Source of the DNA: Candidatus Hydrogenedens sp.
GTDB lineage: Bacteria; Hydrogenedentota; Hydrogenedentia; Hydrogenedentales; Hydrogenedentaceae
Length of the DNA: 60,642 nucleotides
NCBI GenBank assembly: GCA_049968235.1
Contig: JBMFRC010000019.1
Coordinates: forward strand, 1-60,642
Reading direction: 5' to 3'
The notes below the pieces were generated by a model, which did no database searches, was not told where the DNA came from, and was given only the letters and a program-made list of their open reading frames with translations. The position numbers and the translations under genes were made by a program. Positions within the stretch are counted from its first letter, which is position 1. Each line of letters begins with the position of its first letter. Shown piece after piece: positions 21,461 through 49,470 of the stretch.

Positions 21461-21681
21461 ATATTTGAAAGTATGAATGTTATTTTCTCTAAGTAGAGAG
21501 GCGATGAGAATTTTTCTCTTTGATTACAACACTTAAAGCATAAATTTTTTTACAGTTTTAAAACACTTTTTGACATTTGGTTTTTATTCAATGGTTTTTT
21601 GTAATAAGAAAGGATATTTATACATAATAGAAAGATTGTCTTTGTTGTAAACAAGTGAATATATTTTTGGAGGATAATTAT

Positions 21682-22953
21682 ATGGCACGAAAGAAAACGA
21701 CACGCAGAGAATTTTTGAAAGCGTCTGGAGCGGTAGGGTTAAGTTTTATGGTCCTGCCGAGACGCATATTAGGGGGCAAAGCACACGCCTCGCCAAATGA
21801 AGAATTGACCCGTGCAATTATCGGGGTTGGTGGTATGGGAATGGGACATATCGGATACCCTGGTGCTCGATTACTTGCGGTCTGTGATGTAGATGAAAAA
21901 CACCTAAAGCAGGCACTGGAAAAAGCAGGGCCGGATGTGAAGGGATATAAGGATTATCGAGAAGTACTTGCCCGTGAGGACATTGATATTGTCCATATTG
22001 TTACCCCTCCGCACTGGCATGCTATTATTGCCGTCGATTCTGCCCGTGCAGGTAAGGATATCTGGTGCGAGAAGCCTATGACCCGCACTATTGGAGAGGG
22101 GAAAAAAGTAGTAGAAGCAGTTCAACGGTATGGGCGTATTTTCCGTCTGAATACATGGTTTCGGATGAAAGACACTTTCTATGGGTTTGGCACTACTGCA
22201 TATGAAATAAAAAAAGTTGTTGATAGTGGTATATTAGGCTGGCCCCTGAAAGTTAATGTAGGCGAGTCCACAGGTTTTACTTGGAAATTTTTCTGGTCAG
22301 GAATGACGAATTTAGAACCGCAACCTGTTCCTCCCGAATTGGATTATGACTTCTGGTTGGGTCCTGCTCCATATAAACCGTATCATCCTCATCGTGTTCA
22401 TTCAACCTTCCGTGGATATTGGGATTATGATGGAGGTGGATTGGGGGATATGGGACAGCACTATTTAGACCCGGTCCAATATTTGTTAGGTAAAGATGAT
22501 ACAAGTCCTGTTGAAGTGGAGGTTTCTGCTCCCCCACAACATCCCGATGCGGTCAGTTCTTTCCGCTGGATTCGTCTCCGTTATGAAGATGGTTGCGAGA
22601 TTATTCTTGATGGGGAAGGAAAACCAGGCTTACCCTATCTGGAAGGACCTAAAGGGAAACTCTATCCGGGATTAAAATCTGATGTTCCTAATTTTGAGAA
22701 AAAATTAGCATCATTCCCCAATCCGGAACCCCTTCCTTGCGATTTTGCACATTCTGTTCGCACACGGGAAAAATTCCCTCTAAATGAAGTGAATGGACAT
22801 CGTTCCTGCACCATTGTCAATCTTGCAAAGATTGCCATGCAATTGGGTAGAAGTTTGCGATTTGACCCTGTCAAGCAGGAGTTTATTGGTGATGAAGAAG
22901 CAAACCGACTTATCAACCAACCCATGCGTGCACCCTGGACTTTACAAGTATAA
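21682..22953 (+). CDS. Tat-exported Gfo/Idh/MocA family oxidoreductase (ThuB/glycoside 3-dehydrogenase-like)
   Basis: SD ggagga precedes the ATG at 21682. Twin-arginine signal TRREFLKASGAVGL. Rossmann motif IIGVGGMGMGH. Similar in length and layout to the second copy at 40957. Confidence 0.8.
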   Translation: MARKKTTRREFLKASGAVGLSFMVLPRRILGGKAHASPNEELTRAIIGVGGMGMGHIGYPGARLLAVCDVDEKHLKQALEKAGPDVKGYKDYREVLAREDIDIVHIVTPPHWHAIIAVDSARAGKDIWCEKPMTRTIGEGKKVVEAVQRYGRIFRLNTWFRMKDTFYGFGTTAYEIKKVVDSGILGWPLKVNVGESTGFTWKFFWSGMTNLEPQPVPPELDYDFWLGPAPYKPYHPHRVHSTFRGYWDYDGGGLGDMGQHYLDPVQYLLGKDDTSPVEVEVSAPPQHPDAVSSFRWIRLRYEDGCEIILDGEGKPGLPYLEGPKGKLYPGLKSDVPNFEKKLASFPNPEPLPCDFAHSVRTREKFPLNEVNGHRSCTIVNLAKIAMQLGRSLRFDPVKQEFIGDEEANRLINQPMRAPWTLQV

Positions 22954-22965
22954 GGAGAATAAACA

Positions 22966-25752
22966 ATGAATACATCGAATAAATCAACACAAATATATAT
23001 AACATCTATCTTTGTAACTATTTTTTTATTAACTTCACTTACTACAAGAGCAGAAATAGCACAATGGTTAGAAAAAATAGGTTCTGCCTCTGTGACGGAG
23101 GGTTATGGTATATGTGAAGAACTTTGCAAACAAGGAGAACCCAAAATTGTAGAACTATGTCAGCATATCAAACCTCAGGGCGATGACCGTAATGCGCGCT
23201 TGTTTGTCCGTATGTTAGTAAATTATGCATCCACTCAGTCGACAGAGATACAAAATACGGTAGTAAGAGGTTTCGTAAAAGCACTACAGGCAAATCAGGA
23301 TACACAAATTAAGGCATTTTTAATCAGTGAACTTCAAATGTTAGGAAATCCTCTGTCTGTAGAAGCAATAGCAGAATATATCGGGAATAAAGACCTGTGT
23401 GATTATGCTATTCGTGCTTTGCAAACGATAAATAATGATGTATGCTTTCAGAAACTGTGCGAAAACCTTTCCCGTTCTGAGGGGAGATGTCAACAAGGTA
23501 TTATCACTGCTTTGGCAGAAATAGGCAATCCACAAGCAATTATGGTTTTAGAAAAGTTATTCAATTCTGCCCCACCCGAAACAAAAGAAATAATATTAAT
23601 TGCCATTGCACAACTGGAAAATGACAGTGAGAAATATTACAAACTTATAGAGACACAGTTAAGTGCGGATAAACCACTCACTAGAAAACAGTCTTATACT
23701 CTGCTTTTTACACAAATCGAAAGGGTAGCAAAACAAAAGGGTATAACACCACAGCAGAAAAATATTCTTGAAACTCTATTGCAACAGGCATATAAAGAAA
23801 ATGATAATGGTGCTATATGTGCAATCCTCCATTTATTTACCTATCTACCTCCAAAAGATATTATCGATTTGTTTGCCCGAGAAGTTTATAACCCTCAACC
23901 GGAAATATCCGCAGTTGCTTTACAATATTTCGCTAAGATGAATACGAAAGAAAGTAAAAATGTACTAAAAGAAGCCCTTGTCAAAAGTGCATCTGGTGGA
24001 AACGCTTATCAAGTCCTGGATGCGGTAGAAAAAGTACCTGATTCCTTATTTATCCCTGCAATTGTTCCTTTATTAACTCATTCAGATGAAAAAGTTCGAA
24101 TGAAGGCAATACAGTGCCTGATAAAAATGGATGCGGATAAAGCGATACCGATTTTAGTAAAACGATTAAAAGAGACCACAGATAAAACCAATTTAAATGC
24201 TATTCAACAGGCACTTCTTCAAACACCCCCCAAAGAAACTGTTACGGAATTGGGTTCATCTTTGAAAAAGTTAAAAGGGGAACGATTGGTTGTTGCTCTG
24301 GATATTCTGGCTCAACGACAGGCGGAAAAATATTTTAAGTTCGCACTTCAACAGACAAAGGATAAAGATGCAAAAGTTCAAAAAACCGCTTTGAATGCGA
24401 TAGCACTCATGGGTACTCCAAAGGATGTTCCTTCTCTTATTAAACAATTAACCGACCCGAAGAACCCCAATCAAGATGCGATTGGTGAAGCCATCGTTCA
24501 TATATTAAAACATAAAGAGGATGAGGACCGTTGCAAACCTATCTTTTCAGCAATGGATAAGGCAAAACCGGAACAATATGCATTGTTGCTTTCAATTCTT
24601 GCAAAAGTGGATGATGCGTCCGCACGGGATTTTGTCCTTTCATGGCTCAATCTACCTTCGGATGTCCCTCAAAACAAGGTAAAGATAGAAAACGCCATTT
24701 CTGCTCTGACTCTCTGGGATAACCCAAAACTTGCAGAAAACATGATTGCCTTTCTCAGAAAGAACCCTAATCATCCTTATCGCAATGATGTGTGGAAAAC
24801 ACTTATTCGCTTTTTATCCTTGCCCGGTTTAACCCCGGATGAAAAAGTATGGGTATGTGAACAGGCTATTGGAATTATGCCTGAAAATGCAGGGGATATG
24901 TTTACTATTTTAGGAGGGATAAGCAACAGTGATTCTTTCCTGACGGTTGCAAAATATACCACCAATCCCCAGTTCGCAGATATTGCAAATAAGACACTGG
25001 TGCGAATTGCTATGCCCGATAAAAATAATGAAAATGGTATTACAGGTCGAGACATTGTTCCCTATCTGGAAAATGCATTGAAGTATATTGATGATGCAAC
25101 ATTGAAAGAAAATATTCAGAAACACATTGAAAAATGTAAAAATGCCCCCTATACTCTACCTGTAGTTTATGAAGATGACAATCAGTTTACATTACTATTC
25201 AATGGTAGCAATTTGAAAGGTTGGAGTGGCTATACTCGGGGATTTGTCCCCGAATTTGGGAAACTGGTCTGCTTACCTACCTGCCACCTGAATTTGTTTA
25301 CAGAGAAACCCTATAAAGATTTTATTTTACGATTTGAATTCAAATTATATCCCGGTGCTAATAACGGCATTGGACTACGCGTTCCTTACATGAAACATTC
25401 AGCCTATAATGGCATGGAAATACAAATCCTTGATGATAATGCTCCAGAGAATAGTGGATTGAAACCATATCAATATCACGGTTCTATATATGGAGTATTG
25501 CCCCCTGCAGTTCCTGCTCCATTGAAAAAATGTGGAGAGTGGAATCAACAGGAGATTATCTTACAGGGGTCGAAAATATCCGTTCGTGTTAATGGAGTAG
25601 AGATTCTAACAGCAGATTTGAAAGAATTGGCAAATAAGCCTACCCCGGATGAAAAGGCACATCCCGGTTTGCTTAATGAGGAAGGACATATTGCTCTGCT
25701 TGGACACGGCTCTCGCGTTGAATTTAGGAATATAAGAATAAAGCAACTATAA
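22966..25752 (+). CDS. Sec-exported HEAT-repeat protein with C-terminal DUF1080 (3-keto-disaccharide hydrolase/lyase-like) domain
   Basis: 928 aa. Signal peptide (IFVTIFLLTSLTTRA). Roughly 700 aa of helical repeats with recurring PBS-lyase/HEAT-like units (ALxxIG.P.AI..L). The C-terminal 200 aa (FNGSNLKGWSGY...NNGIGLRVP...MEIQILDD...HGSIYG...GEWNQQEII...FRNIRI) match the DUF1080 jelly-roll. No CxxCH heme motif. Confidence 0.75.
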   Translation: MNTSNKSTQIYITSIFVTIFLLTSLTTRAEIAQWLEKIGSASVTEGYGICEELCKQGEPKIVELCQHIKPQGDDRNARLFVRMLVNYASTQSTEIQNTVVRGFVKALQANQDTQIKAFLISELQMLGNPLSVEAIAEYIGNKDLCDYAIRALQTINNDVCFQKLCENLSRSEGRCQQGIITALAEIGNPQAIMVLEKLFNSAPPETKEIILIAIAQLENDSEKYYKLIETQLSADKPLTRKQSYTLLFTQIERVAKQKGITPQQKNILETLLQQAYKENDNGAICAILHLFTYLPPKDIIDLFAREVYNPQPEISAVALQYFAKMNTKESKNVLKEALVKSASGGNAYQVLDAVEKVPDSLFIPAIVPLLTHSDEKVRMKAIQCLIKMDADKAIPILVKRLKETTDKTNLNAIQQALLQTPPKETVTELGSSLKKLKGERLVVALDILAQRQAEKYFKFALQQTKDKDAKVQKTALNAIALMGTPKDVPSLIKQLTDPKNPNQDAIGEAIVHILKHKEDEDRCKPIFSAMDKAKPEQYALLLSILAKVDDASARDFVLSWLNLPSDVPQNKVKIENAISALTLWDNPKLAENMIAFLRKNPNHPYRNDVWKTLIRFLSLPGLTPDEKVWVCEQAIGIMPENAGDMFTILGGISNSDSFLTVAKYTTNPQFADIANKTLVRIAMPDKNNENGITGRDIVPYLENALKYIDDATLKENIQKHIEKCKNAPYTLPVVYEDDNQFTLLFNGSNLKGWSGYTRGFVPEFGKLVCLPTCHLNLFTEKPYKDFILRFEFKLYPGANNGIGLRVPYMKHSAYNGMEIQILDDNAPENSGLKPYQYHGSIYGVLPPAVPAPLKKCGEWNQQEIILQGSKISVRVNGVEILTADLKELANKPTPDEKAHPGLLNEEGHIALLGHGSRVEFRNIRIKQL

Positions 25753-35789: not shown

Positions 35790-36479
35790 TTATAGAATTT
35801 GTCTGTTTTCACTTATTTGATTATAAGCATTTGATCCTTTAAATTCAGTCAGCCAATGTTGAAATTTAAGAGGAATATTTTGTCTCTGAAGTTTCTTATT
35901 TTCTCTTTCTGTAATTGATATATTTCGATGATACCTTTGCCATAATTGCTGGAAAAAACTTTCCGCATCGGTATCCGAAGGAAGCGAGTCATGAAAAACA
36001 ACCTCATATAACTTTCCCTCTTCTACGAATAGGGCTTTCCTCCGTTTTATATCGTGAATTATAAATCGTTCATTATTAAATCGTCTCGAAAAATGCAGAG
36101 CAAGAGGAACTATTATGTTAAAATCAGAAGTATATGACGCATAAAGATATCCCCCTTCAATTTCATGAAAACGAAGTAAACCCATTAATTTATGAATTTG
36201 TCGCTGAATACTTCTTGCTGTCTTTATTACCTTGTAAACAATGGGGTCATTTATTTTTTCAACAGGAAATTTCTTATTCTCTTCGATGTGTTTTAGAAAA
36301 ATATGAATCTCTTCATATGTATTTTCAGAATCTGTTAAAAGATAGTATTTCAATATTTTCTGTATTGCAATAGGTGCCTTTTTAATTTGTTCTTCAATAT
36401 CATTTTTATTTACTTCTTGCGGGAATAACAGCCAATCTGTTTTTTCTGAAACCTTATTTTCAGGTAAGTTGAAGTTCAC
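35790..36479 (-). CDS. Putative DNA metabolism protein (DUF4130/TIGR03915-like), partner of radical SAM repair protein
   Basis: 229 aa. Translationally coupled (20-nt overlap) to the upstream radical SAM gene. Size and position match the conserved two-gene putative DNA modification/repair pair. Confidence 0.45.
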   Translation of the reverse strand: MNFNLPENKVSEKTDWLLFPQEVNKNDIEEQIKKAPIAIQKILKYYLLTDSENTYEEIHIFLKHIEENKKFPVEKINDPIVYKVIKTARSIQRQIHKLMGLLRFHEIEGGYLYASYTSDFNIIVPLALHFSRRFNNERFIIHDIKRRKALFVEEGKLYEVVFHDSLPSDTDAESFFQQLWQRYHRNISITERENKKLQRQNIPLKFQHWLTEFKGSNAYNQISENRQIL

Positions 36480-37725
36480 AGTTAAACAGGTCTCCTATGG
36501 TTATATCGTTACAAGATTTTCGTTCTAATAATTTTTCGGACAGTAGAGGATGTCCCAAAGGAATAGTTCCAAAATATTTTCCTTTGATAGTTATGAAATA
36601 AATAGCTCTTTTAATAACAACACCCAATTTTTTTAGGGTATCCATATCGAGTTTTCCTGTTTTTCTTGCCAGTATAATCCTTCGTGCTGATGTAGGACCT
36701 ATGCCCGGAACACGAAGTAATTGAAACATATCCGCCTGCATTATTTCCACTGGGAAAAACTGTAAATTTCTCAAAGCCCAGGATATTTTTGGGTCAAAAT
36801 GCTCATCAAGATTGGGATTGTTTTCTGTAAGAAGTTCGTCTAATGAGAATTTGTAAAACCGCAGAAGCCAGTCCGCTTGATATAAACGGTGTTCGCGTTG
36901 CAAAGGGGGACTTCCAATAGAAGGTAAAATAGGTTCTTGATTTAGTGGAACATAAGCAGAGTAGTACACTCGTTTTAACAGAATATTTCTATATAAGTAT
37001 TCGGAAAATCGTAAAATCTGCCAATCTGTTTCAGGTGTAGCCCCTATTATCATCTGCGTGCTTTGACCGCTCTTTGCATAAAAGCCCTTTCTTTTTGGAG
37101 AGGAAAGCAATTTCTCACGAATTGCATTTATTTTACGCATTGTCGCGATAGTTTTTTTCAAATCCTTTTGTGGTGCAAGCAATTTCAAAGAAGAGGTCGT
37201 AGGCAACTCTACATTAATACTTACCCTATCTGCCCAGAAAACTGCCTCCTCGATAGCATTCTCTTCTGCTCCCGGAAGTATTTTCATGTGGATATAACCA
37301 TTAAACCCATAGCGTTCCCTTAATATCTTTACCGTATCCAGCATAAGTTCCATTGTCCGATTGGCATCGTTAAATATTCCCGAACTCAGGAAAAGCCCTT
37401 CAATGTAATTTCTACGATAAAATTCGTATGTTATTTTTGCCAACTCTTCCGGAGCAATTGTTGTTCTGGCTATGTCATTCTTACATCGGTTAATGCAGTA
37501 TGCACAATCGTTATGACAATAATTGGTTTGTAGAGTTTTTAGAAGAGAAATACATCTTCCATCCGATGACCAACTATGGCATAACCCCCCTGACAGAGTA
37601 TTTCCTATCTTACCTTTTGTTGGTTTCCGTTCTACACCACTGGAGGCACAAGAAACATCATATTTTGCTCCACGAGTCAGTATATCTAATTTTTGTATTG
37701 TATCCGGAGATTTCTTTATTAACAT
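36460..37725 (-). CDS. Putative DNA modification/repair radical SAM protein (TIGR03916-like) with C-terminal helix-hairpin-helix
   Basis: CX3CX2C radical-SAM motif CHNDCAYC. C-terminal HhH-like LLRVPGIGPTSARRIILARKTG. 421 aa. Confidence 0.65.
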   Translation of the reverse strand: MLIKKSPDTIQKLDILTRGAKYDVSCASSGVERKPTKGKIGNTLSGGLCHSWSSDGRCISLLKTLQTNYCHNDCAYCINRCKNDIARTTIAPEELAKITYEFYRRNYIEGLFLSSGIFNDANRTMELMLDTVKILRERYGFNGYIHMKILPGAEENAIEEAVFWADRVSINVELPTTSSLKLLAPQKDLKKTIATMRKINAIREKLLSSPKRKGFYAKSGQSTQMIIGATPETDWQILRFSEYLYRNILLKRVYYSAYVPLNQEPILPSIGSPPLQREHRLYQADWLLRFYKFSLDELLTENNPNLDEHFDPKISWALRNLQFFPVEIMQADMFQLLRVPGIGPTSARRIILARKTGKLDMDTLKKLGVVIKRAIYFITIKGKYFGTIPLGHPLLSEKLLERKSCNDITIGDLFNCELQLT

Positions 37726-37898
37726 AAATTGATAATCATCCTTTTTATTACAGGCTTATAATATCACAGAAACAGATATACTGCAAATTTTTTCACTATA
37801 TAGAATGAGTTAATATGTGCTTTCTTTTGTAAAAAACGAAAGGGGACAGTAAAAACTGTCCCCTTAAAATTCCTTGCGAGGTCGGAAAAAGTTAAATA

Positions 37899-38912
37899 TT
37901 ATTGATAACCAGCTGCCTGAGAAATGATACCAATGACAACACCAACACTGGGCAGTATTGGTTCTGTAGCATTTACATCCGGGTTGTTCATATCAGTGGC
38001 ACCGATGTAGCGAATGAATTCAACATGGCCATCCATGTAAAGCACATTGCAACCACCAGGCAGATGGTTGAAGAAATCAATAGCACCATAAGCAGAGAAT
38101 TGGTCTAACATAACATAGACTTCACTCTGAGCATTGTTCGATGCGGCTGGATTATTAATATCCGTAATCAAGAACCTTTCAATACCTTCACGAAGCCTAT
38201 AGATAGTACTACCTCCTCCATTTCCAACACCTGCAGGAACAGAAATATCTTTATCAGTAATTCCTATCAATTGGGTTGCAGCTGCTTGGTTGGGAGAACT
38301 AATACAGGCACCTATGGGTGTAAGCGAATCATTGATAAGTTTGCTGACTGCTTCTGCCAGTTGAATAGGAACCGGAGCAGTACCGCTAACAGCACTACCA
38401 CCCATCAAAGAAATAAGAGAATTCAATGTTGAGTAGTTGCTTAATGGCGCTGTTCCCAATTCTTTATTACGGTCGAAAACCTAGCCCAGATAAGCATAAC
38501 TGGCATCCAGTCTTTCCGGTTCACAGGTTAAGTAACTGGTCCCATCTTGCTTTTTCAAATAGGCTGCAGTATCCCGTGCATCAGACGGACAAATTGCAAT
38601 GGCTGGGTCTGTCAGATACTCGGGGTAAATAGTATCTACCGCAGGTGCAGCCGCGATTGCAAACTTATAATTTTCACTGGGGTTTTCGCATTTTGTTCTG
38701 ACAACCTGCAACGGTGGGAACCTTTCTCCTTTGGCTTCGTTACAATACATCTTAAGTACGACACCCCACTGCTTCAGATTATTCTGGCAGGAGGAACGGC
38801 GGGCCGCTTCACGTGCACAGGCAAGTGCCGGCAGTAATATTGCGGCGATGATACTAATAATAGCGATGACGACGAGTAGTTCGATGAGCGTGAAACCTTG
38901 TTATTTCATAAC
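37899..38912 (-). pseudogene. DUF1559 prepilin-type (H-X9-DG) protein gene disrupted by two in-frame nonsense codons
   Basis: The minus-strand translation begins [50 protein letters not shown] at codon 3 sits where the intact paralog at 46208 has MKKHGFTL. The same frame continues through a second stop, TAG at 38481-38483, where the paralog has Trp (YLAW vs YLG*). It runs on to ...[17 protein letters not shown]. Both lesions are single-base substitutions and there are no frameshifts. Confidence 0.7.
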
Positions 38913-39248
38913 CCTACTCCTTTCCTTTTTCTTCTGTTACCCGAGTTCTCGGTATACTTAAGCCCTCGCAAGTCGCTCGGATAACATTCGGGGTTAATGT
39001 TGTTTATTAAACTATTAAAGAACACTTAAAACTACAGTATTATTAATACATAGTTATAACCTAAAAGTCAAATTTTTAGCAACCTAAATTCCATACAAAA
39101 GTAAAGTTATATAAATATTCCTGTCTTTCTCACAATCGTGGATTAATTTTTTTGTCAGTTCCATAAACACATCAGAAATGATTTAATAAAATCCAAATAT
39201 TTGCAAAAAACTATAAAAAACTAATGTGGTAAATACTGATAAAAAAAT

Positions 39249-40697
39249 TTACGGTAATTGTTCTGAGGCTAATGCTACTACTCTATAAGCACCGTTATAA
39301 GTACCTACTTTCTTTAATTGAACAATCTGTTCGTTATACATTTTTAATAAATCATCTTCCTCAACAAGCATATTTAGAACCTGTAATGTAAAATCGAGCC
39401 CGACGCATTCTGGTGTACTATCACCAATTTCACTAGCACGAATTGCTCCCCATGCCTCATGACCACCAACTCGTTCCAGTAATAATTTCGGTATAGGATA
39501 AAATGCAAGTTCACTCGGTTTTGTTATTAGCAAATCACTGGGACGCATTAGTAAATTCGTAGTATAAACAGCAGAATAGGTATTATCATGGAGAAAACCA
39601 TGAAGCGTCCCCGATACTTTATTATCCAATGCATTTTTTACAAATTGTTTCGTTTCATCCCAGTGATTATGCAAATTAAGCAGGTCATCAAAGTGTGGAA
39701 TATTTTTCTTAAAGTATTCCAATGCATTTACATGGTCCCCAAAATTTAAGAACAGAATTAATTTTCCTTCTATTATCCATTTCCATAGAAATTTAACAAT
39801 ATTTACGAGCAAATTTTGCTGTGCACCGGCTCCTCCAATAGAAATCAAAAATCTGCGAGGTTCTTTTTTATCCATACGGGATATACGATTTTGCACATCT
39901 TCCTCTAATGGAGCGAGCAACTCATGGTCAACATAATGTCCAACTGCTTTAATTTGACTTTGTGGAATTCCTTTTCCAATACCCGGCGGAATCATCCCCC
40001 GTAAGGTTCGGAAACCAAAATATTCAGATGGACCCTGCACAACCTGTAATGCATCCGGGGAAAGATGAAAACCTAATGGACAATTATCCGGAATAAGGTT
40101 CAAAACCTTACGCATACCTGCAAAACTTGCTCCATGTGCATTGAACGGATGTGTCGCCAGAACAGGGATATTGGGGTCCAGTTGACGATATACATCGGAT
40201 AATATCTCTGCGGTTGCCATTACGGGATAATTCTTTTCCAGTCCCCGATACCATTTCCCCATTAACGGGTCCCAAAAGAAACGGTTAAACATTTTCGATT
40301 TCTGTGAGATGCGAGAACCTAATGAATACCAATAATCCAGATAGCGAATCATTCGTGCTCCTGCACTATTAAAGTTCAACAAATCAAACCAGTAAGGAAT
40401 ATAGCCCGCATAGTTAACAGCAGAGGCTATTGCCATTCCGATGCGATAATGTCCATATCCCATACGAATTGTTCCAATTACCATTCCTTTTTGTGGGTCA
40501 AGGGCTATGCCCTCCTTCTCCGAAAAGACATCATGCAAATTAATAAAAGGAGATAAAATCTCATTGGGTTTTGCAATTAGTGGGAATTCATCTTTACCTG
40601 TATATCCAAACTTTTTGGCAAACTTCCTCTTTAATTTTTCACCTTTTTGTATCGATTTATCTGAAAGAGGCATTCCGAACAAAGTTTTATGGTTCAT
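39249..40697 (-). CDS. Putative glycosyltransferase (GT28 / MGDG-synthase-like)
   Basis: 482 aa. N-terminal GTIRMGYGHYRIGMAIASA resembles the GxGH(x)2A motif of the MurG/MGDG synthase N-domain. A later ISIGGAGAQQ segment resembles the C-terminal nucleotide-sugar binding domain. Low-to-moderate confidence. Confidence 0.4.
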   Translation of the reverse strand: MNHKTLFGMPLSDKSIQKGEKLKRKFAKKFGYTGKDEFPLIAKPNEILSPFINLHDVFSEKEGIALDPQKGMVIGTIRMGYGHYRIGMAIASAVNYAGYIPYWFDLLNFNSAGARMIRYLDYWYSLGSRISQKSKMFNRFFWDPLMGKWYRGLEKNYPVMATAEILSDVYRQLDPNIPVLATHPFNAHGASFAGMRKVLNLIPDNCPLGFHLSPDALQVVQGPSEYFGFRTLRGMIPPGIGKGIPQSQIKAVGHYVDHELLAPLEEDVQNRISRMDKKEPRRFLISIGGAGAQQNLLVNIVKFLWKWIIEGKLILFLNFGDHVNALEYFKKNIPHFDDLLNLHNHWDETKQFVKNALDNKVSGTLHGFLHDNTYSAVYTTNLLMRPSDLLITKPSELAFYPIPKLLLERVGGHEAWGAIRASEIGDSTPECVGLDFTLQVLNMLVEEDDLLKMYNEQIVQLKKVGTYNGAYRVVALASEQLP

Positions 40698-40956
40698 TGT
40701 TATCTCCTTACAAAATCAATTCATTGTTTTTATAGAAAAATTACCATAACAATTCATATTTTAGAAAATCAAATAAAACAAAAGAAATTATAATATCTTT
40801 ATTTCGGGATTGTTAATATCCAATCACTACAAAGGATACCACAATTTCGTTTTTTTTCATTTTATTTTCAAAACTCGTTTTTTATTTTGTTAGTCTGATA
40901 TGATAAAAAAGCCTTTTATTTTTGTAGCAAAACCCAATTTATGGAGGTAAATTTTT

Positions 40957-42282
40957 ATGAAACGGAAAAAACAAAAAAAGGAATCTTTAAATCGAAGGGA
41001 ATTCTTAAAAAGGACGGGGCTTGCCTCGTTAGCAACAGTTGCGTTTCCATATATCATTCCGGGCAGGGCACTAGGACTTGATGGAGCAGTTCCTCCCAGT
41101 GAACGAATTACAATTGGTTGTATCGGTGTTGGTGGTATGGGCACATCCAATATGGAAGGTTTTCTCAGCCAACCTTCTGCACAGGTTGTGGCTATATGTG
41201 ATGTCGATGCAAAGCATCTTGAAACGGCGATGAAAAAAGTAAACGACCGTTATGGCAATCAGGATTGTGCAGGTTATAAAGACTTCCGAGAGTTAATTGC
41301 CCGTGATGATATTGATGCGGTTTCATTAGCGTTACCGGACCAATGGCATGCAATTCCTGCAATTATGGCTGTAAAAGCGGGAAAAGATGTTTATGGTGAA
41401 AAACCATTAGCAGGCTCAATTAAAGAAGGACGAGCCATTGTCGATGCAGTGGAACAATATGGCAGAATCTGGCAAACGGGCAGTTGGCAGAGGTCACAGG
41501 AGCATTTCCGTCAGGCATGTGAACTCGTTCGCAATGGATACATCGGTGAAGTGAAATATGTTGTTGTTGGTTTACCCGCAAAGAACTCCATTAATAAAGG
41601 CAGTACAACCCCAACAGACCCACCTCCGTGGTTCGATTATAATATGTGGTTAGGACCAGCCCCATACGCACCGTATTGTGAAGCCCGATGCCATTGGAAT
41701 TTTCGCTGGATTAGTGATTACGCAGGTGGACAATTAACCGACTGGGCTGGACACCATTGCGATATTGCCCAATGGGGCATGGGAACCGAACTCACAGGAC
41801 CCGTTGAAATCATCCCAAGAGGCGGACATTGGCCTAAAGCAGAAGATGGACTTTTTGATACCGTAGAAGATTATGAATTCCTTTGCAAATTCAAAGAAGG
41901 TTTTGATATGTTAGTAACTGCACGGCAAAAAGGGGGCGTTTTATTCAAAGGTTCGGAAGGCTGGATACATGTTGACCGTGGTGCTTTCGATGCATACCCG
42001 CGGTCTTTAGTTCAAACAGAAATTAAACCTCATGAATTACATTTGTACCGTTCTTCAAATCATATTGGAAACTTTTTAGAATGTGTCCGTACTCGCAAGA
42101 AAACCATCACCCCTGCTGAAGTAGCACATCATTCCATTATGATTGGACATTTAGGACTGATAGCCCTTAAATTAGGCAGACCATTAAAATTCGACCCTGA
42201 TACAGAAACCTTTGTAAATGATTCCGAAGCCAATCGTATGCTCTGCAGACCCATGCGTGAGCCGTGGCACCTAAATATTTAG
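40957..42282 (+). CDS. Tat-exported Gfo/Idh/MocA family oxidoreductase (ThuB-like), second copy
   Basis: Twin-arginine signal NRREFLKRTGLASLATVAF. Rossmann motif IGCIGVGGMGTSN. Colinear with 21682..22953, including the shared C-terminal ...RLI.QPMREPW motif. Confidence 0.8.
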   Translation: MKRKKQKKESLNRREFLKRTGLASLATVAFPYIIPGRALGLDGAVPPSERITIGCIGVGGMGTSNMEGFLSQPSAQVVAICDVDAKHLETAMKKVNDRYGNQDCAGYKDFRELIARDDIDAVSLALPDQWHAIPAIMAVKAGKDVYGEKPLAGSIKEGRAIVDAVEQYGRIWQTGSWQRSQEHFRQACELVRNGYIGEVKYVVVGLPAKNSINKGSTTPTDPPPWFDYNMWLGPAPYAPYCEARCHWNFRWISDYAGGQLTDWAGHHCDIAQWGMGTELTGPVEIIPRGGHWPKAEDGLFDTVEDYEFLCKFKEGFDMLVTARQKGGVLFKGSEGWIHVDRGAFDAYPRSLVQTEIKPHELHLYRSSNHIGNFLECVRTRKKTITPAEVAHHSIMIGHLGLIALKLGRPLKFDPDTETFVNDSEANRMLCRPMREPWHLNI

Positions 42283-42323
42283 TAATTACTTATGAACCTT
42301 CTTTCATACATAGGAGAAATAAT

Positions 42324-45300
42324 ATGAATTATAGGACAAGACAAATAATTGTAGGAAAGTTTCTTATTGCCCTTATTTTGACTTTTATTCCTATGAATCT
42401 TATGGCAGAACCTACAATTAAAGCACTACTATTAACAGGGCAAAACAATCATCGCTGGGACATCAGTTTCCCCATTTTGAAGGATGCTCTGGAAAAAACG
42501 GGACTATTTCAGGTGGATGTGCTTCAATCGCCTGCTCAGGGCGCTGATTTTTCCTCCTTTAAGCCAGAATTCCAAAATTATCAGGTGGTTATTTTAGATT
42601 ACAACGGTGACCCCTGGCCTGAAAATGTAAGACAATCCTTTGTATCTTATGTGGAAAATGGTGGAGGGGTAGTTGTTTACCACGCTGCAAATAATGCTTT
42701 CCCTGACTGGCCTGAATTTAATAAAATTATTGGTCTTGGTGGTTGGGGCAACCGTGATGAGCGCTGGGGTCCGTATGTTCGCTGGCGAGATGGGAAGGTC
42801 GTAAAAGATAATATTCCGGGACCCGGTGGTAGTCATGGAACACAGCATGCCTTTCAAGTTGTAATACGCGACCGCAATCATCCCATTACAAAGGGACTCC
42901 CTCCGATATGGCTCCATGCAAAAGATGAGTTATATGACCGTCTGCGTGGTCCTGCAGAAAACTTAACTGTTCTCGCAACCGCTTATTCCAGTCCCGAAGA
43001 AAAGGGAACCGGTGAACATGAACCGATTCTTTTCACAGTACAATATGGAAAAGGCAGAATTTTCCAGACTGTTTTAGGACACCCGCAAGAGGATACTCCT
43101 GTGGCATTACAATGTGCAGGTTTCCTTACTACATTCCTGCGAGGTGCAGAATGGTGTGCTACCGGTAAAGTAACACAACCTGTTCCCGAAGATTTTCCGG
43201 GACCTGATGAAATTCGTATCTGGGAAGAAAATCGTTATATTCCCCTTGCGGAATTATTGGAACGGATAAAAGGGTATAAAGCCCTGGATAGCCTTGCCAC
43301 AATAACTCAAATTAATGAATACCTCCGTGTTATGACCTCTGATAAAAGGTCTCTGGCAAATGCTGAAAAGGAAATGATTAAATTCCTTCTTTCCGACGCG
43401 ACAATAGATGCCAAAAAATATGTATGCTCAAAATTAGGAGAATTAGGTTCTCAAGCATCTGTCCCCGTTCTAACGGATTTGTTACAGGTCCCTGAATTAT
43501 TTGATTCAGCCCGTTTTGCTCTCGAAAAAATACCCGGGGAACTATCCGCTCGTGCCCTGCGAAATGCGTTACAGACAACCGAAGGGAAAAACCGTATTGG
43601 CATTATTACCTCACTTGGTTTGCGAAAGGATGTCAAGTCCATCTCTTCTATTGCGGTATTTTTGAACAATAGTGACCCTGATATTGTAATTTCTGCGGGT
43701 TCTGCTCTTTGTATGATGGAAGAGGAAAGTGCTCTTTCAGCATTATGGACAGCACATTCACAATCTATTGAATCAGCCCGTTTGAAATTAACACAACATG
43801 CTTTTGCCTGTGCCGATAAAATATTAGCGAAGAAGAAATCCCCCGATGCCCTTGCAGTAATACGTAGTTTATCCGCAGATAGTTCGCTTACACCTTCTCT
43901 ACGGATAGCATCGCTACGCAGTCTATTAAAGTACTCTGAGGAAGAAGGGACAAAAGTATTAGTAAAGGCACTTGGTGACCCTGATACTGATTTTGTTCGG
44001 CTCGTTATTGCCTCTACACCCTTAATAAAGAATAAGCAACTTCTATTAAATGTTGTATGCAAGGAAATGGCTTTTTCTACACCTGAAAATCAAGTGCAAT
44101 TTATCAATCTGTTCGCTTCACAAAAAAGAAAAGATATACTTCCCTATGTAGTTAACAGTCTCAATAGTGAGAATCCTGCAATTCGAGAAGCCAGCATAAA
44201 AGCACTCGGTGTTATAGGTGGCAAATCGGAAATAGAATTACTTATTCCCAAAGCCCTCGGCGAAGGAACAGAGGCAGAACTGGCAAAAGCAAGTCTTGCT
44301 TCGATGCCCGGAGATGACGCCGGACAGGGAATGTTGGATATATTGAAGAAACCCGATATAGAACCCGCTTTAAAGAAACTCCTTCTGCCCTTAGTTGCTA
44401 CACGAAAAGTACCCGGCAGTGAACCCATCATACTAAAATCTGCCGGAGATGCTGACCCGGAGTGTAGAATATCCGCTATAAAGAGCCTTATCGAACAGCC
44501 TAATGCAGAAATGCTTGACACGATTTTACAAATATTGCCGGGAGTCAGTTCCGATGAAGAACAAGAACTGTTTGCAGAACTGATTTTGAAAATTGCATTA
44601 CTGAATCCTGATGAAACGGAAAAACAATTGGTCAAAATTTCATCCGTACTGGATTCCAATTCCGCATTACCGGTGCAAACAGTTCTACTTCATGTCCTCG
44701 CACAGTCGGGGCATGTCAAAGGATGGGAGAAATTAAGCACATGTATAAGTACAAATACACCCGCCGATAAGTTGGGCATTGTAATACAAGCATTAAATAA
44801 ATGGCCAGATGATACGCCTGTTCCTGTCCTGATAGAATTTGCCCGTGCAAATCCTGAACTGCCACATCGAGATAGGTTACTCGAAACATGTTTGAATTTA
44901 ACACAAAAGACAAAATCTACCGATGAAGAAGTTATACAAAGGATTGCTTCTTTATTAGAATTAAATCCTTCTGCATCGGTAAAGAAATCTGCATTAGAAA
45001 AGATTGCCCAGCGGAAAGTTGATAGTTCATTACCCTTACTGCTTAAATACCTTCATGAATCTGAAGACCCTGTAAAGGAAACTTTGATTCGTTCTTTATC
45101 CAATTGGCGAAATGCGGAACCTCTAAATGCTTTATTGGAACTTGCCCGCACAACAGATAACGATTCTATTCGTCGGCAGTCTCTTGCAGGTGTTATTCAA
45201 TTATCGGATAATATTTGCAATATGTCCTCTGAACAACGGACACAATTGTTTAACGATGTGATAGCAATTGGCACAAAGCCTGAGATATTAAAAGGTATCA

Positions 45301-46031
45301 TAGGTGCCTTGCAAAACACATCTTATCCCGAAGCATTAGCCATTGTAACCCAATACCTGGATAATGAACAGGTAAAAAGTGAAGCGGAAGTTGCGGTCGT
45401 TAAACTTTCAAAAACGCTTATAGGAATTGCGACGGATATAGTTGCCCCCGCTCTCGAAAAAGTCATCCATCAAGGACAGATGGAACTAATCAAACAAGAA
45501 GCACAGAAAACTCTGGATATAATCCCGAAATTTGAGGATTTTATTACTACATGGATGGTCTCAGGTCCTTATATAAACGATGAAATTAACGCTAACATGT
45601 TGTATGAGTTCGTATTTGCACCGGAGAAACCCGAAGAAGCAGAAAAAGCATTATGGAAACCCGTTTCACCGGGAACCAATCCTAACAAACCCATGGTGGT
45701 TGAACTCCATAAAATATTAGGAGGGGAAAACCGTGTCGCTTATTTAAGCACTTATGTGTGGAGTGATACAGAGCAGGATGTTAATTTGTTAATCGGTAGT
45801 GATGATGGTGCCCGTATTTGGGTTAACGGGACAAAAGTATTCGGGAAAAATGCAAATCGTCCCTGCGTGCCTGATGATGATACAATAGGAATCCACTTGA
45901 AACAAGGTTGGAACCATATACTCGCCAAAATCCGTCAGGGTAGTGGAGAGTGGGAATTCTGTGCACGTATCCGCAAATCGGATGGCTCCCCATTTGAGCC
46001 AAAACTTAAAACTGCGATATTGCCTAAGTAA
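42324..46031 (+). CDS. Sec-exported multidomain protein: ThuA-like (type-1 glutamine amidotransferase-like) domain + HEAT repeats + C-terminal beta-sandwich (PA14/LamG-like) domain
   Basis: SD aggag precedes the ATG at 42324; the ORF runs from 42264. Signal peptide FLIALILTFIPMNLMA. Residues about 30-300 match ThuA (ALLLTGQNNHRWD...VVILDYNG...ENGGGVVVYHAANNAFPDW...HPIT...YGKGRIFQTVLGHP). About 650 aa of HEAT/PBS-lyase-like repeats follow. The C-terminal 200 aa (WMVSGPY...LIGSDDGARIWVNGTKVFG...) look like a beta-sandwich carbohydrate-binding fold. No CxxCH. Confidence 0.7.
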   Translation: MNYRTRQIIVGKFLIALILTFIPMNLMAEPTIKALLLTGQNNHRWDISFPILKDALEKTGLFQVDVLQSPAQGADFSSFKPEFQNYQVVILDYNGDPWPENVRQSFVSYVENGGGVVVYHAANNAFPDWPEFNKIIGLGGWGNRDERWGPYVRWRDGKVVKDNIPGPGGSHGTQHAFQVVIRDRNHPITKGLPPIWLHAKDELYDRLRGPAENLTVLATAYSSPEEKGTGEHEPILFTVQYGKGRIFQTVLGHPQEDTPVALQCAGFLTTFLRGAEWCATGKVTQPVPEDFPGPDEIRIWEENRYIPLAELLERIKGYKALDSLATITQINEYLRVMTSDKRSLANAEKEMIKFLLSDATIDAKKYVCSKLGELGSQASVPVLTDLLQVPELFDSARFALEKIPGELSARALRNALQTTEGKNRIGIITSLGLRKDVKSISSIAVFLNNSDPDIVISAGSALCMMEEESALSALWTAHSQSIESARLKLTQHAFACADKILAKKKSPDALAVIRSLSADSSLTPSLRIASLRSLLKYSEEEGTKVLVKALGDPDTDFVRLVIASTPLIKNKQLLLNVVCKEMAFSTPENQVQFINLFASQKRKDILPYVVNSLNSENPAIREASIKALGVIGGKSEIELLIPKALGEGTEAELAKASLASMPGDDAGQGMLDILKKPDIEPALKKLLLPLVATRKVPGSEPIILKSAGDADPECRISAIKSLIEQPNAEMLDTILQILPGVSSDEEQELFAELILKIALLNPDETEKQLVKISSVLDSNSALPVQTVLLHVLAQSGHVKGWEKLSTCISTNTPADKLGIVIQALNKWPDDTPVPVLIEFARANPELPHRDRLLETCLNLTQKTKSTDEEVIQRIASLLELNPSASVKKSALEKIAQRKVDSSLPLLLKYLHESEDPVKETLIRSLSNWRNAEPLNALLELARTTDNDSIRRQSLAGVIQLSDNICNMSSEQRTQLFNDVIAIGTKPEILKGIIGALQNTSYPEALAIVTQYLDNEQVKSEAEVAVVKLSKTLIGIATDIVAPALEKVIHQGQMELIKQEAQKTLDIIPKFEDFITTWMVSGPYINDEINANMLYEFVFAPEKPEEAEKALWKPVSPGTNPNKPMVVELHKILGGENRVAYLSTYVWSDTEQDVNLLIGSDDGARIWVNGTKVFGKNANRPCVPDDDTIGIHLKQGWNHILAKIRQGSGEWEFCARIRKSDGSPFEPKLKTAILPK

Positions 46032-46054
46032 AAGAATAAAAATTAACTTACACG

Positions 46055-46103
46055 ACAAGCCTCAATATATTTATATGTTATATGTTGAGGCTTGTTTTTT
46101 TTG
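46055..46103 (+). terminator. Rho-independent terminator after the ThuA-HEAT gene
   Basis: 11-bp stem acaagcctcaa / ttgaggcttgt (46055-46065 and 46085-46095) followed by T8 (46096-46103). About 25 nt after the stop codon. Confidence 0.7.
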
Positions 46104-46207
46104 TAAAATATATTGAATTCTAAAAAAATATAATGTAAAATAGTAAGAGTTATACACAGTATAATTTACTATAATTATCAAACAAAATTACTATTAAGGA
46201 GAATATT

Positions 46208-47134
46208 ATGAAAAAGCATGGTTTCACCCTCATTGAACTTCTCGTCGTTATTGCTATCATCGGTATTCTTGCGGCAATACTATTACCAGCGCTTGCTCGT
46301 GCTCGTGAGGCGGCTCGTCGTTCCAGTTGCCAGAACAACTTAAAGCAAATCGGGCTTACATGTAAAATGTATGCAAACGAAGCCAAAGGGGAAAGATTCC
46401 CACCATCGAAACTATACAATTGCACAGAATTAAGTGGAGAATTTGTAATAGATTGTATGGCGGTGTATCCGGAATATTTAAACGACCCTGCTGTTCTATT
46501 ATGCCCTTCCGCAACAACAGGGAATGACCCGGAGAAAGTATTTAATAAAGCAGATAATCGTGCTCAGGTTATTGGAGACCGCGCCGGAAACTTTGTCCCC
46601 ACTGCTGGGGTTCCTAATACCGAATTTTATCCCTGCGAAGTAGATGATAGTAGTTGTTCTTACTTATATTTAGCATGGAACACATGGTTTCCGGGGATTA
46701 TTGACCGACCCGACCCACCGGAGAATCCTGATGTAAATGTAATGATAGATTGGTTAATGGCGAATAATCCGCAAGTGGTTATTATGTTAGGCAATCTATA
46801 CCCGCGTTTAGGGAATCCATCCCAAAATGATGAGGATTTCCAATTCAACGATGGAACCCAGAACTTAACGATGTATCGTTTGAGAGAGGGAATTGAACGC
46901 TTCATGATAACGGATATCAACAATCCCGCAGCAAGTGCCAAAGCCCAAAGTGAAATCCCTGTGTGTGGAGACTGGGTCAGCACCGATATAGGACAGGAAT
47001 TCAATCATGTACCCGGCGGTTGTAATTTCCTGTATATGGATGGTCATGTCGAATTTATTCGATACCCCGGCAAATGGCCTGTTAATCGCACAATGGCTGT
47101 TCTACAAAGTGAAGAAATTATGGACAGGTTCTAA
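46208..47134 (+). CDS. DUF1559 family protein with prepilin-type N-terminal cleavage/methylation domain and H-X9-DG-like C-terminal motif
   Basis: SD aaggag present. N-terminus [50 protein letters not shown] is the Planctomycete DUF1559 pseudopilin-like head. C-terminus [18 protein letters not shown]. Confidence 0.85.
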
Positions 47135-47151
47135 ACGAATTATCCAGACCC

Positions 47152-47190
47152 AAAAGGTGAGGTATATTTCTCCGATACCTCACCTTTTTT
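47152..47190. terminator. Terminator hairpin between convergent DUF1559 gene and LarE-like gene
   Basis: Stem aggtgaggtat / atacctcacct (within 47152-47184) with a 9-nt loop, followed by T6 on the plus strand. Weaker T-run on the minus strand. Confidence 0.65.
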
Positions 47191-47327
47191 ACTTACTATA
47201 AAGTTTAACTATTGCAGAGGAGAAGAGATTCTTCGTGTTGTTCTTATCAGAGCAGGATGTGCACATGTATTCGTTTTTCAGTATCAAAGAGAAATTAAAA
47301 TACATTTATGAAAGGGGAAAATATATA

Positions 47328-48143
47328 TTATCTTGCAGTACTACCTGTGCGATAGCCAGCAATATCAACAGTGATATAGCGGTACCCCAGTTTCGTAAAT
47401 TCCTGAAATATTTTGTAGCGAATAGGTTCGGAAATCAATCGGGGTAAGTCTTGCAATTCCACTTCAATGCGAGCAAGGTTTTGGTGATTACGAACACGAT
47501 ATTGCTTAAATCCTAATGACTTTAATATGTTCTCTGCACTTTCTATTCGTTTCAGGTCTTCAATAGTAATTGGTGTTCCTGTGGGGATTCGTGATGATAA
47601 ACAAGCAAAACTGGGTTTGTCTGCTGTGGGTAATTGACGAAGTTTGCTTAGAATACGAATTTCCTCTTTTGTCATACCTACTTCCGAAAGAGGAGTTATT
47701 ACCCCAAATTCTTTCATGGCTAACTTCCCACTTCGCGTTGTATCCAATAAATCATCCGCATTTTCACCGCAGGCAATTGCCTGAAAATTATTCTGTTTTA
47801 TAAACTCCAACATAGTTTTAAAAAGTTCACTTTTGCAATAATAACAACGTTGGGGGTCATTTCTTAAAAATCGTTCATCCTTGAACTCATGGGGATATAT
47901 TACGGACACATTCCATTGTTGTTGTTTTGCAAATTCAAGGGCTTCTTTTAACTCTTCGCGGGGCATACTGGGTGTATCTGCGATAAGCAAAATGCAGCGG
48001 TTGCTCAATACTTCGTAGGCAACCGCTGAAAGATAGGTTGAATCCACACCTCCCGAATAGGCTATTGCAATTGATGTAAATTTCTGCAGATATTTTTTCA
48101 ATTCCCGTTCTTTACAAAGTGCTTGTTCTTCTAATAAAGACAT
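47328..48143 (-). CDS. PP-loop ATP pyrophosphatase, LarE-like (TIGR00268 family) sulfur transferase
   Basis: PP-loop SGGVDSTY (SGGxDS). 271 aa. Conserved Cys-containing CYYCK region. 14 nt downstream of the mtaB-like gene. Confidence 0.7.
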   Translation of the reverse strand: MSLLEEQALCKERELKKYLQKFTSIAIAYSGGVDSTYLSAVAYEVLSNRCILLIADTPSMPREELKEALEFAKQQQWNVSVIYPHEFKDERFLRNDPQRCYYCKSELFKTMLEFIKQNNFQAIACGENADDLLDTTRSGKLAMKEFGVITPLSEVGMTKEEIRILSKLRQLPTADKPSFACLSSRIPTGTPITIEDLKRIESAENILKSLGFKQYRVRNHQNLARIEVELQDLPRLISEPIRYKIFQEFTKLGYRYITVDIAGYRTGSTAR

Positions 48144-48156
48144 TATTTACCCTTTT

Positions 48157-49470
48157 CTATCCTTGGTTGATAATATTTAAAACTGTGCCACTCATATGTT
48201 CTACGAAAACATTTTCTAATCGGACATCACATAATTTGTTTTCCAGACATTCCGGACTTTTTGCCGTAACACGAATATAATTATCTGTATATCCTTGCCA
48301 ATGGTCGTTATTTTTTTCCTCAAATAAAACCGTCCTCACCGTATTTTGTGATTTTCGGTAAAACAGATTACGTTTCCTTTTACTTAATTCAATTAACAAA
48401 TTTACGCGGTGTTCAATTTCAGGATTTGCGACTTGTCCAGAAAAAGAATAGGAAGGGGTTCCTTCTCGCGGTGAATATGGGAATATATGCAGGAAAAATA
48501 TGGGTAAATTTTCGAGGAAATGTAATGTTTCCTCAAATAATAGGGTTGTTTCACCGGGAAAACCTACAAGGATATCGGAACTAATTCCGATATTGGGGAC
48601 TGTATCTATCGCCTGTAGAACAAAATCCCGATAGGTCTCACAAACATACTGGCGGTTCATCTGCTTTAATATTGTATTTGAACCCGATTGTAGAGGGATA
48701 TGTAGATATGGAACCAGAGGGAAATAACTATCTTTCATTCGCAGGAGAAATTCTTCATTTAAGGAGTTAATCTCAATAGAACTTAATCGAATTCGTGCTT
48801 GATTTCCGAACTGTTCATAGATGGTATCCAGTAGTTTTATCAGGTTCTTTCCCTCAAAATTGTAATTTCCTATATTAACACCTGTTAGGACAATCTCTTT
48901 AACTCCCGCTTCGATACGCCAATTTATTTCCTGTAAAATCTCCTGTATATTTCTTGAACGGGAAGGTCCACGTAGGTAAGGGATTATGCAGTAAGAGCAA
49001 TACTGGTTACAACCTTCCTGTATTTTGATATTTGCTCGATGAAAACCCGGAATGGCGACAGGTTTTGTAAATGAGCAACTCAATGCGGTGAGTTCCCATG
49101 TGGTTCCGGTTAGAATACAGGGTGTTTCTCGTTTTTTCCCCGTTATGTATGGGAACCAGTTCATTTTCCGTTTATTATCTACAATTAGGTCTATGCCGGG
49201 AATTTTCTTTAATGTTTCTATATCTTTTTCGACATAACAACCAATTACAACGATTTCAGCAGATGGATTCTTCCGAATCGTATGTCGAATGACTTTTCTG
49301 CATTTTACCTCTGCTTCATGCGTTACGGCGCAGGTATGAATAATACAGAGGTCGGCAGGAGAGTCTTTTGATGCAATTTCATAACCCTGTTCGTAAACTT
49401 TTTGGAGTATTGCATCGGATTCTGCCTGATTTAATCGGCATCCAAGTGTATGTATGTATACATATTTCAT
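48157..49470 (-). CDS. mtaB: Radical SAM methylthiotransferase, MtaB-like (tRNA ms2t6A) family
   Basis: N-terminal MTTase domain (TLGCRLNQAESD, three Cys). Radical SAM CNQYCSYC. C-terminal TRAM-like region. 437 aa. Distinct from the MiaB copy at 51491. Confidence 0.7.
   Translation of the reverse strand: MKYVYIHTLGCRLNQAESDAILQKVYEQGYEIASKDSPADLCIIHTCAVTHEAEVKCRKVIRHTIRKNPSAEIVVIGCYVEKDIETLKKIPGIDLIVDNKRKMNWFPYITGKKRETPCILTGTTWELTALSCSFTKPVAIPGFHRANIKIQEGCNQYCSYCIIPYLRGPSRSRNIQEILQEINWRIEAGVKEIVLTGVNIGNYNFEGKNLIKLLDTIYEQFGNQARIRLSSIEINSLNEEFLLRMKDSYFPLVPYLHIPLQSGSNTILKQMNRQYVCETYRDFVLQAIDTVPNIGISSDILVGFPGETTLLFEETLHFLENLPIFFLHIFPYSPREGTPSYSFSGQVANPEIEHRVNLLIELSKRKRNLFYRKSQNTVRTVLFEEKNNDHWQGYTDNYIRVTAKSPECLENKLCDVRLENVFVEHMSGTVLNIINQG

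Follow-up and report, generated by a model that had tools for sequence, protein, structure and literature searches.

A DUF1559 gene with a prepilin-type N-terminus in Candidatus Hydrogenedens is probably a young pseudogene that decayed stepwise

Within a 60,642-nt stretch of DNA (the window), which is the complete contig of a Candidatus Hydrogenedens MAG, one minus-strand gene of the large DUF1559 family carries two in-frame stop codons. We consider it very probable that this locus is a young, strain-specific pseudogene that decayed stepwise, the TAA arising first and the TAG second. The window was compared with two near-identical MAGs (99.75-99.93% DNA identity), and among the three genomes an intact allele, an allele with the TAA only and an allele with both stops are found. 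An initial annotation, made from the sequence of the window, had suggested very recent pseudogenization and had proposed a comparison of the orthologous locus in related strains; the allelic series provides this comparison and bears the suggestion out.

Results

A prepilin-type DUF1559 gene with two in-frame stop codons

Translation of positions 37850-38960 (minus strand) gives a single frame of 336 codons with two internal stops and no frameshift (Table 1). This agrees with the initial annotation, which had described a TAA at codon 3 and a TAG further in. The translation around the second stop reads SYAYLG*VFDRNKE, and the C-terminal end is GYQ*. The span had been given as 37899-38912, an end that lies 3 nt too far (GTT is not a start, and the ATG runs from 38909); the other coordinates were right.

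With the stops replaced, the product is 98% identical to the intact 336-aa protein of a sister MAG. When codon 3 is read as Lys, the N-terminus is recognized as prepilin-type by TIGR02532 (34.7 bits, cut-off 16.3) and also matches PF07963 (36.2 bits, cut-off 21.2). The match to PF07596 (DUF1559) reaches 46.9 bits against a gathering threshold of 23.3 and aligns solely to profile positions 3-61 of 268. At the other end of the protein, TIGR04294 (H-X9-DG-CTERM) scores 28.6 bits (cut-off 19) over residues 284-300, with the preceding His at residue 282, in line with the earlier reading that conservation continues through to an H-X9-DG-like end. Given the match to the intact sister protein and the family profile scores above their cut-offs, the frame is not a chance ORF. 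The best database matches of the locus are proteins of Candidatus Hydrogenedens and other Hydrogenedentota.

The more specific profiles are not matched at their cut-offs. The GspG equivalog scores 32.4 bits (cut-off 88.85) and the PilA_Myxo equivalog 33.1 bits (cut-off 400), and in both the N-terminus alone aligns. A sequence search of the PDB gave matches only over residues 2-66, which correspond to the alpha-1 helix of type IV pilins, geopilins and GspG, and found no solved relative of the 270-residue globular part. Judged from these comparisons, the encoded protein is predicted to have an N-terminus like that of a prepilin-peptidase substrate and to fall outside any characterised pilin or pseudopilin family.

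Table 1 Coordinates of the probable pseudogene, its signals and the neighbouring features in the window
Feature	Position	Strand	Basis
DUF1559 / prepilin-type / H-X9-DG gene, 336 codons, now a probable pseudogene	37899..38909	-	Translation, profile matches, intact allele of 336 aa in GCA_049971155.1
ATG start codon	38909-38907	-	Sequence
TAA at codon 3, from AAA (Lys) via A>T at 38903	38901..38903	-	Common to GCA_049969095.1, hence the older lesion
TAG at codon 143, from TGG (Trp) via G>A at 38482	38481..38483	-	Window only, hence the younger lesion
Natural stop TAA	37901-37899	-	Sequence
Codons 19-21, Ser-Ile-Ile replacing Gly-Ile-Leu (G19S at 38855, L21I at 38849)	38847..38855	-	Only in TAA-carrying alleles
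Shine-Dalgarno (SD) AAGGAG, 7 nt before the ATG, intact and the same in three strains	38917..38922	-	Sequence
Intrinsic-terminator-like hairpin and T-run 3' of the gene	37840..37865	-	Sequence
DUF6937+DUF6938 gene (E 1e-87, 7e-72)	39249-40697		Pfam
Intact paralogue, 308 aa, 44% aa identity, CDS identical in three strains	46208..47134	+	Translation, profiles, alignment
Variable 5' region of the intact paralogue	46138..46204	+	Strain comparison

Upstream of the gene, positions 38910-39248, which include the SD, show zero differences among the three strains. Downstream, a window-specific SNP at 37882 falls between the stop codon of the pseudogene and the terminator-like hairpin. Because the promoter region, the SD, the frame and the terminator are untouched, the loss appears to be very recent.

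Three alleles in near-identical genomes

The allele of GCA_049971155.1 (annotated as MGC9052251.1) is an intact, uninterrupted gene of 336 aa with Lys (AAA) at codon 3 and Trp (TGG) at codon 143. Its contig, JBMFLO010000001.1 (30.6 kb), is collinear with window positions 21371-51982 at 99.84-99.93% identity. In GCA_049969095.1 the gene carries the TAA at codon 3 only: it reads ATG AAA TAA CAA GGT at its start, but CTG GGC TGG GTT at the site of the second lesion, where the Trp is intact. The contig concerned, JBMFPN010000024.1, is collinear with window positions 35942-48882 at 99.75% identity. The window allele has both stops. Collinearity among the three strains spans 12.9-30.6 kb. Their accessions are of one series, and the three MAGs probably come from one study.

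All four members of the 90%-identity protein cluster of this gene come from the same three MAGs. Two exact-pattern scans of JGI metagenome contigs for further strains, one per stop and each with the variable base left degenerate, returned zero matches.

Order of the changes and constraint on the gene

We aligned five genes of 1011 nt, comprising those of the three strains and the orthologues of P0002 (92% aa identity, L083) and P0003 (86% aa identity, L084). There are no indels in this alignment, and both outgroup orthologues are intact. The 92% orthologue, from a sister species, is syntenic and adjoins the same downstream radical-SAM and DUF4130 genes, and in its cluster 8 out of 8 members are intact at 336-337 aa.

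Four changes map to the stem common to the window and GCA_049969095.1, namely K3* (AAA>TAA), G19S (GGT>AGT), L21I (CTC>ATC) and a synonymous GCA>GCG at codon 86. W143* (TGG>TAG) maps to the window branch, whereas S167T, V174I and a synonymous change at codon 264 map to the branch of GCA_049969095.1. None of the eight outgroup-polarised changes falls on the branch of the intact allele. N204S differs as well and is ambiguous, since the two outgroups disagree. Changes among the strains are mostly GC>AT.

Several of the altered sites are otherwise highly conserved. Positions 19-21 are GIL in 125 out of 127 homologues, with SII confined to the two TAA alleles, and the equivalent of Trp143 is Trp in 108 out of 114 homologues. 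Between species dN/dS is 0.07-0.10, which indicates strong constraint, as against 0.6-0.9 among the three strains with the nonsense changes left out. The gene of the window thus has premature in-frame stops at codons 3 and 143 where its orthologues are intact and constrained. Relaxed constraint is apparent from the substitutions at near-invariant sites, from the elevated dN/dS among strains and from the intact lineage being without polarised changes. The simplest history compatible with the alignment would be a functional gene that acquired the TAA at codon 3, then drifted, and then acquired the TAG at codon 143 in the lineage of the window.

Two other origins of the altered residues were considered and rejected. 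Import of SII at positions 19-21 from a paralogue finds no donor, as the triplet is absent from all 125 other homologues and from the further loci that were retrieved. Nor is targeted mutagenesis, by a DGR-like or another mechanism, indicated, since the bases that mutated (ancestrally A, G, C, A, G, T, G, C) show no restriction to adenine and no repeat that could serve as template was detected.

The intact paralogue and the neighbouring genes

A second DUF1559 gene, which the initial annotation had correctly described as intact, lies on the plus strand (Table 1) and has Lys and Trp at the positions that match the two stops. Its expression signals differ among the strains. The window alone is without one copy of a tandem 10-mer (AATTATCAAA AATTATCAAA) upstream of the paralogue, its SD has changed from GGAGG to GGAGA, and the spacer between SD and ATG is 3 nt shorter. 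A further window SNP is located at 47141, 7 nt past the stop codon of the paralogue, and GCA_049971155.1 has a SNP at 46138.

The gene directly upstream of the pseudogene had been called GT28-like, an assignment that we replace, as its product matches DUF6937 and DUF6938 in Pfam. In two other, more distant Hydrogenedens species (L001 7941-9377 and L015 6172-7611; 70-72% aa identity) the DUF1559 orthologue likewise has a DUF6937/DUF6938 gene immediately upstream that points in the same direction. The conserved, co-oriented pair hints at a functional link between the two genes. Between the DUF6937/8 gene and the divergently oriented GFO oxidoreductase gene, a 10-nt indel in an A/T run (40845-40858) is carried by the window and by GCA_049971155.1 but not by GCA_049969095.1.

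Two similar modules, at 20171-25752 and 40957-46031, each encode a GFO/IDH/MocA oxidoreductase and a large HEAT-repeat protein, which is fused to a 3-keto-disaccharide hydrolase domain in one and to ThuA in the other; the module at 20171-25752 also has an MFS sugar transporter. They look like duplicated sugar-oxidation cassettes. In the window, 42264-46031 is a single ORF of 1255 aa in which HEAT repeats follow a ThuA domain (aa 54-297), but the gene tables of both sister MAGs list only an 899-aa product for this interval and leave the ThuA part of about 1 kb without a called gene. As the DNA over the ThuA part is the same in the sister MAGs where compared, this is probably a discrepancy of start site or annotation.

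Other DUF1559 copies with damaged N-termini

In related MAGs, three further DUF1559 paralogues with N-terminal damage are annotated as proteins (L091 232-262; L092 1480-1510 and 2560-2600). One has a 1-nt deletion in the region of the Gly(-1) codon (ATGCGTAAAAAAGTTTCAC), another has lost about 19 nt including the ATG and the leader, and in the third the first 17 or so codons are absent. Two of the three annotated products start 'MELLVV' at an ATT codon. The search used preferentially retrieves N-terminally damaged copies, since long ORFs survive such lesions. We therefore claim no hotspot, and the apparent pattern may reflect the way in which these copies were retrieved.

Alternative explanations

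A first alternative is that a protein is still made, either because the stops are read through or suppressed, as the initial annotation had allowed in principle (by a suppressor tRNA or a reassigned codon, for instance), or because translation restarts at the ATC of codon 9. The NCBI records could be read in this way, given that the locus of a sister MAG is annotated as a 328-aa protein (P0001) from the ATC of Ile9, and that PGAP annotated the window locus as two CDSs, MGC8739235.1 (134 aa), which starts 'MELLVV' at the same codon, and MGC8739234.1 (186 aa). However, there are two different stop codons, both of them derived from sense codons within a 99.9% identical lineage and absent from the closest strain and from all orthologues. 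In a six-frame scan of the 60.6 kb for stops with at least 80 open codons on both sides, TAG143 was the sole case inside a gene, the others being the boundary of the alanine racemase and YacP genes, a gene end and antisense ORF(s). ARAGORN detected no tRNA in the window, and an Rfam search of the whole window gave zero matches. Moreover, the spacing of the SD suits the original ATG, and the ATC9 used by PGAP is about 30 nt away from the SD. A product that starts at residue 9 would be devoid of Gly(-1)/Phe(+1), the defining feature of prepilin-type substrates in type IV pilin processing. The substitutions G19S and L21I at invariant positions also indicate that constraint was lost. We regard continued production of the protein as extremely improbable. 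We give as little credence to a switch, in which the inverted paralogues serve as arms that invert the 7.3-kb segment between them or in which the stops are phase-variable. The layout that had suggested inversion is real, with two DUF1559 genes in inverted orientation (7.3 kb between the genes, initially put at about 8 kb) and a best inverted match of 42 nt at 86%. Yet the copies share only 44% protein identity, and their most similar DNA segments, of 200, 66 and 72 nt, match at 75.5%, 79% and 74%, respectively. RecA-type recombination needs perfectly matched stretches of roughly 20-30 nt, and the longest that the copies share is 14 nt. The three strains agree in gene order, the orientation of the DUF6937/8-DUF1559 pair is kept in the two more distant species, and a scan of 19 neighbouring proteins revealed no recombinase domain. 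Low DNA identity and collinearity also led us to reject gene conversion between the two copies; the intact paralogue is context, not a recombination partner. As for phase variation, each lesion replaced a single base and neither lies in a repeat; the A-run of the intact allele, ATGAAAAAACAAGG, was altered by substitution rather than in length. An assembly or sequencing artefact, with one or both stops being consensus errors in a gene that is intact in the cells, stands a somewhat better but still very small chance. The source is a MAG and may be a mixed-strain consensus, TAG143 occurs in the window assembly only, and the collections searched hold no further contigs of the species. Against this, TAA3 recurs in a second assembly, which was made separately, as its differences from the window at other sites show, and TAA3 travels with three other derived changes in the gene. 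Both lesions are substitutions and not homopolymer indels, and the rest of the 60 kb is free of broken genes. For the TAA, the sequencing error that had been considered initially is thus very unlikely; for the TAG, with its single assembly, it may still apply.

The remaining alternative concerns the distribution of SNPs, which peaks on the gene. Between the window and GCA_049971155.1 there are 16 substitutions in 30,612 nt, 6 of which lie in the 1011-nt gene (binomial p = 7.8e-6), with a seventh at 37882; between the window and GCA_049969095.1, 5 out of 11 substitutions within 21,148 nt are in the gene (p = 9e-5). Compared with 20-30 kb of flanks, SNPs are about 17-fold denser in the pseudogene, the changes extending over 37882-38903, from codon 3 to the terminator. 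The ten flank changes relative to GCA_049971155.1 comprise 5 nonsynonymous, 1 synonymous and 4 intergenic ones. The flanks are therefore already near neutral, and relaxed selection alone cannot explain the approximately 17-fold excess. One reading of this peak is adaptive or balanced loss, in which null and intact alleles of a putatively exported pilin-like protein are kept together, for example because it is a target of phages or predators or because it is costly, as an old on/off polymorphism that homologous recombination carries from one near-clonal background to another. Consistent with it, all three alleles (intact, with one stop and with two) occur side by side in genomes whose flanking DNA differs by only about 0.03%, and every window-specific change in the region covered by both sister MAGs is in or beside one of the two DUF1559 genes. 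But the comparison comprises three genomes, the second stop adds nothing to an allele that is already null, and an ordinary cause may suffice, namely the import, by homologous recombination, of one or two tracts (about 1-1.6 kb) into a near-clonal background from a member of the species with 0.5-1% divergence, an event that would give the same cluster without selection. Clustered mutation or a long-lived intact/null polymorphism could also be the cause, and three genomes cannot separate these. We consider balanced loss unlikely, although less so than the alternatives above.

Discussion

Taken as a young pseudogene, the locus suggests the following course of events. Ancestrally, the gene would have been functional and under constraint. 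Before the window strain and GCA_049969095.1 parted from each other, in their shared ancestor, an A>T change would have converted Lys3 (AAA) to TAA, and translation from the intact SD and ATG would since have ended after Met-Lys. No in-frame ATG, GTG or TTG follows TAA3 before Met54, and by this next start candidate both the prepilin cleavage site and the hydrophobic helix have already been passed, such that an exportable pilin-like product should be impossible. The dead gene would then have drifted, with G19S and L21I at otherwise invariant helix positions, until Trp143 changed from TGG to TAG in the window lineage. We infer loss of function from these features of the sequence. It was presumably tolerated through redundancy within the family.

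In planctomycetes the family has many members. Planctopirus limnophila has 68 DUF1559 paralogues, 2 of which are essential (PMC10632474), and Rhodopirellula baltica has 74 DUF1559 copies (PMC2754498). The family is multi-copy in Hydrogenedentota as well, where the best 80 genome matches include as many as 7 separate DUF1559 loci from a single MAG, and tandem arrays of 3-4 copies occur. With such redundancy the loss of one copy is likely to be tolerated. Like the families of Planctomycetota and relatives that combine DUF1559 (PF07596, 'SBP_bac_10') with a prepilin N-terminus and H-X9-DG, the gene of the window has all three signatures above cut-offs once the stops are replaced. It differs in being inactivated, in its divergent mid-protein and in its host, which belongs to Hydrogenedentota and not to Planctomycetota.

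Other known systems resemble the locus in part. With type IV pilins and type II secretion pseudopilins (PilA, PilE, GspG) it shares the N-terminal leader, the G/F cleavage site, Glu5 and the hydrophobic alpha-1 helix, but the equivalog scores are far under the cut-offs and the globular part is without a solved relative by sequence; no pilus or secretion machinery genes were found among the neighbours scanned. The silent pilS cassettes of Neisseria are likewise non-expressed pilin-like copies near an expressed paralogue, as the window gene is predicted to be. The window gene is nevertheless not such a cassette, since it has the promoter region, SD, ATG and 5' coding part, is too dissimilar to the paralogue for gene conversion, and carries derived residues that occur in no homologue. 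Closest in kind are recent single-strain pseudogenes in redundant bacterial families (birth-and-death turnover), which likewise combine nonsense point mutations with preserved regulatory signals, have an intact counterpart in sister strains and show dN/dS rising towards 1. The local SNP density, unlike in that model, is above the prediction of neutral drift for a near-clonal background.

As an ordinary young pseudogene in a redundant family, the locus is of little importance beyond annotation. It should carry a pseudogene flag in the NCBI records in place of protein-coding fragments. DUF1559 database members without the N_methyl domain deserve suspicion, as the 'MELLVV...' start also marks other N-terminally damaged copies in related MAGs. 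A maintained on/off polymorphism under phage or grazer pressure, if true, would explain both the gene-centred peak of diversity and the changes in the expression signals of the paralogue. The SNP excess is a small lead on the population-level turnover of the DUF1559 family, and the three-allele series offers a clean, dated example of what is very probably stepwise gene death in an uncultured phylum.
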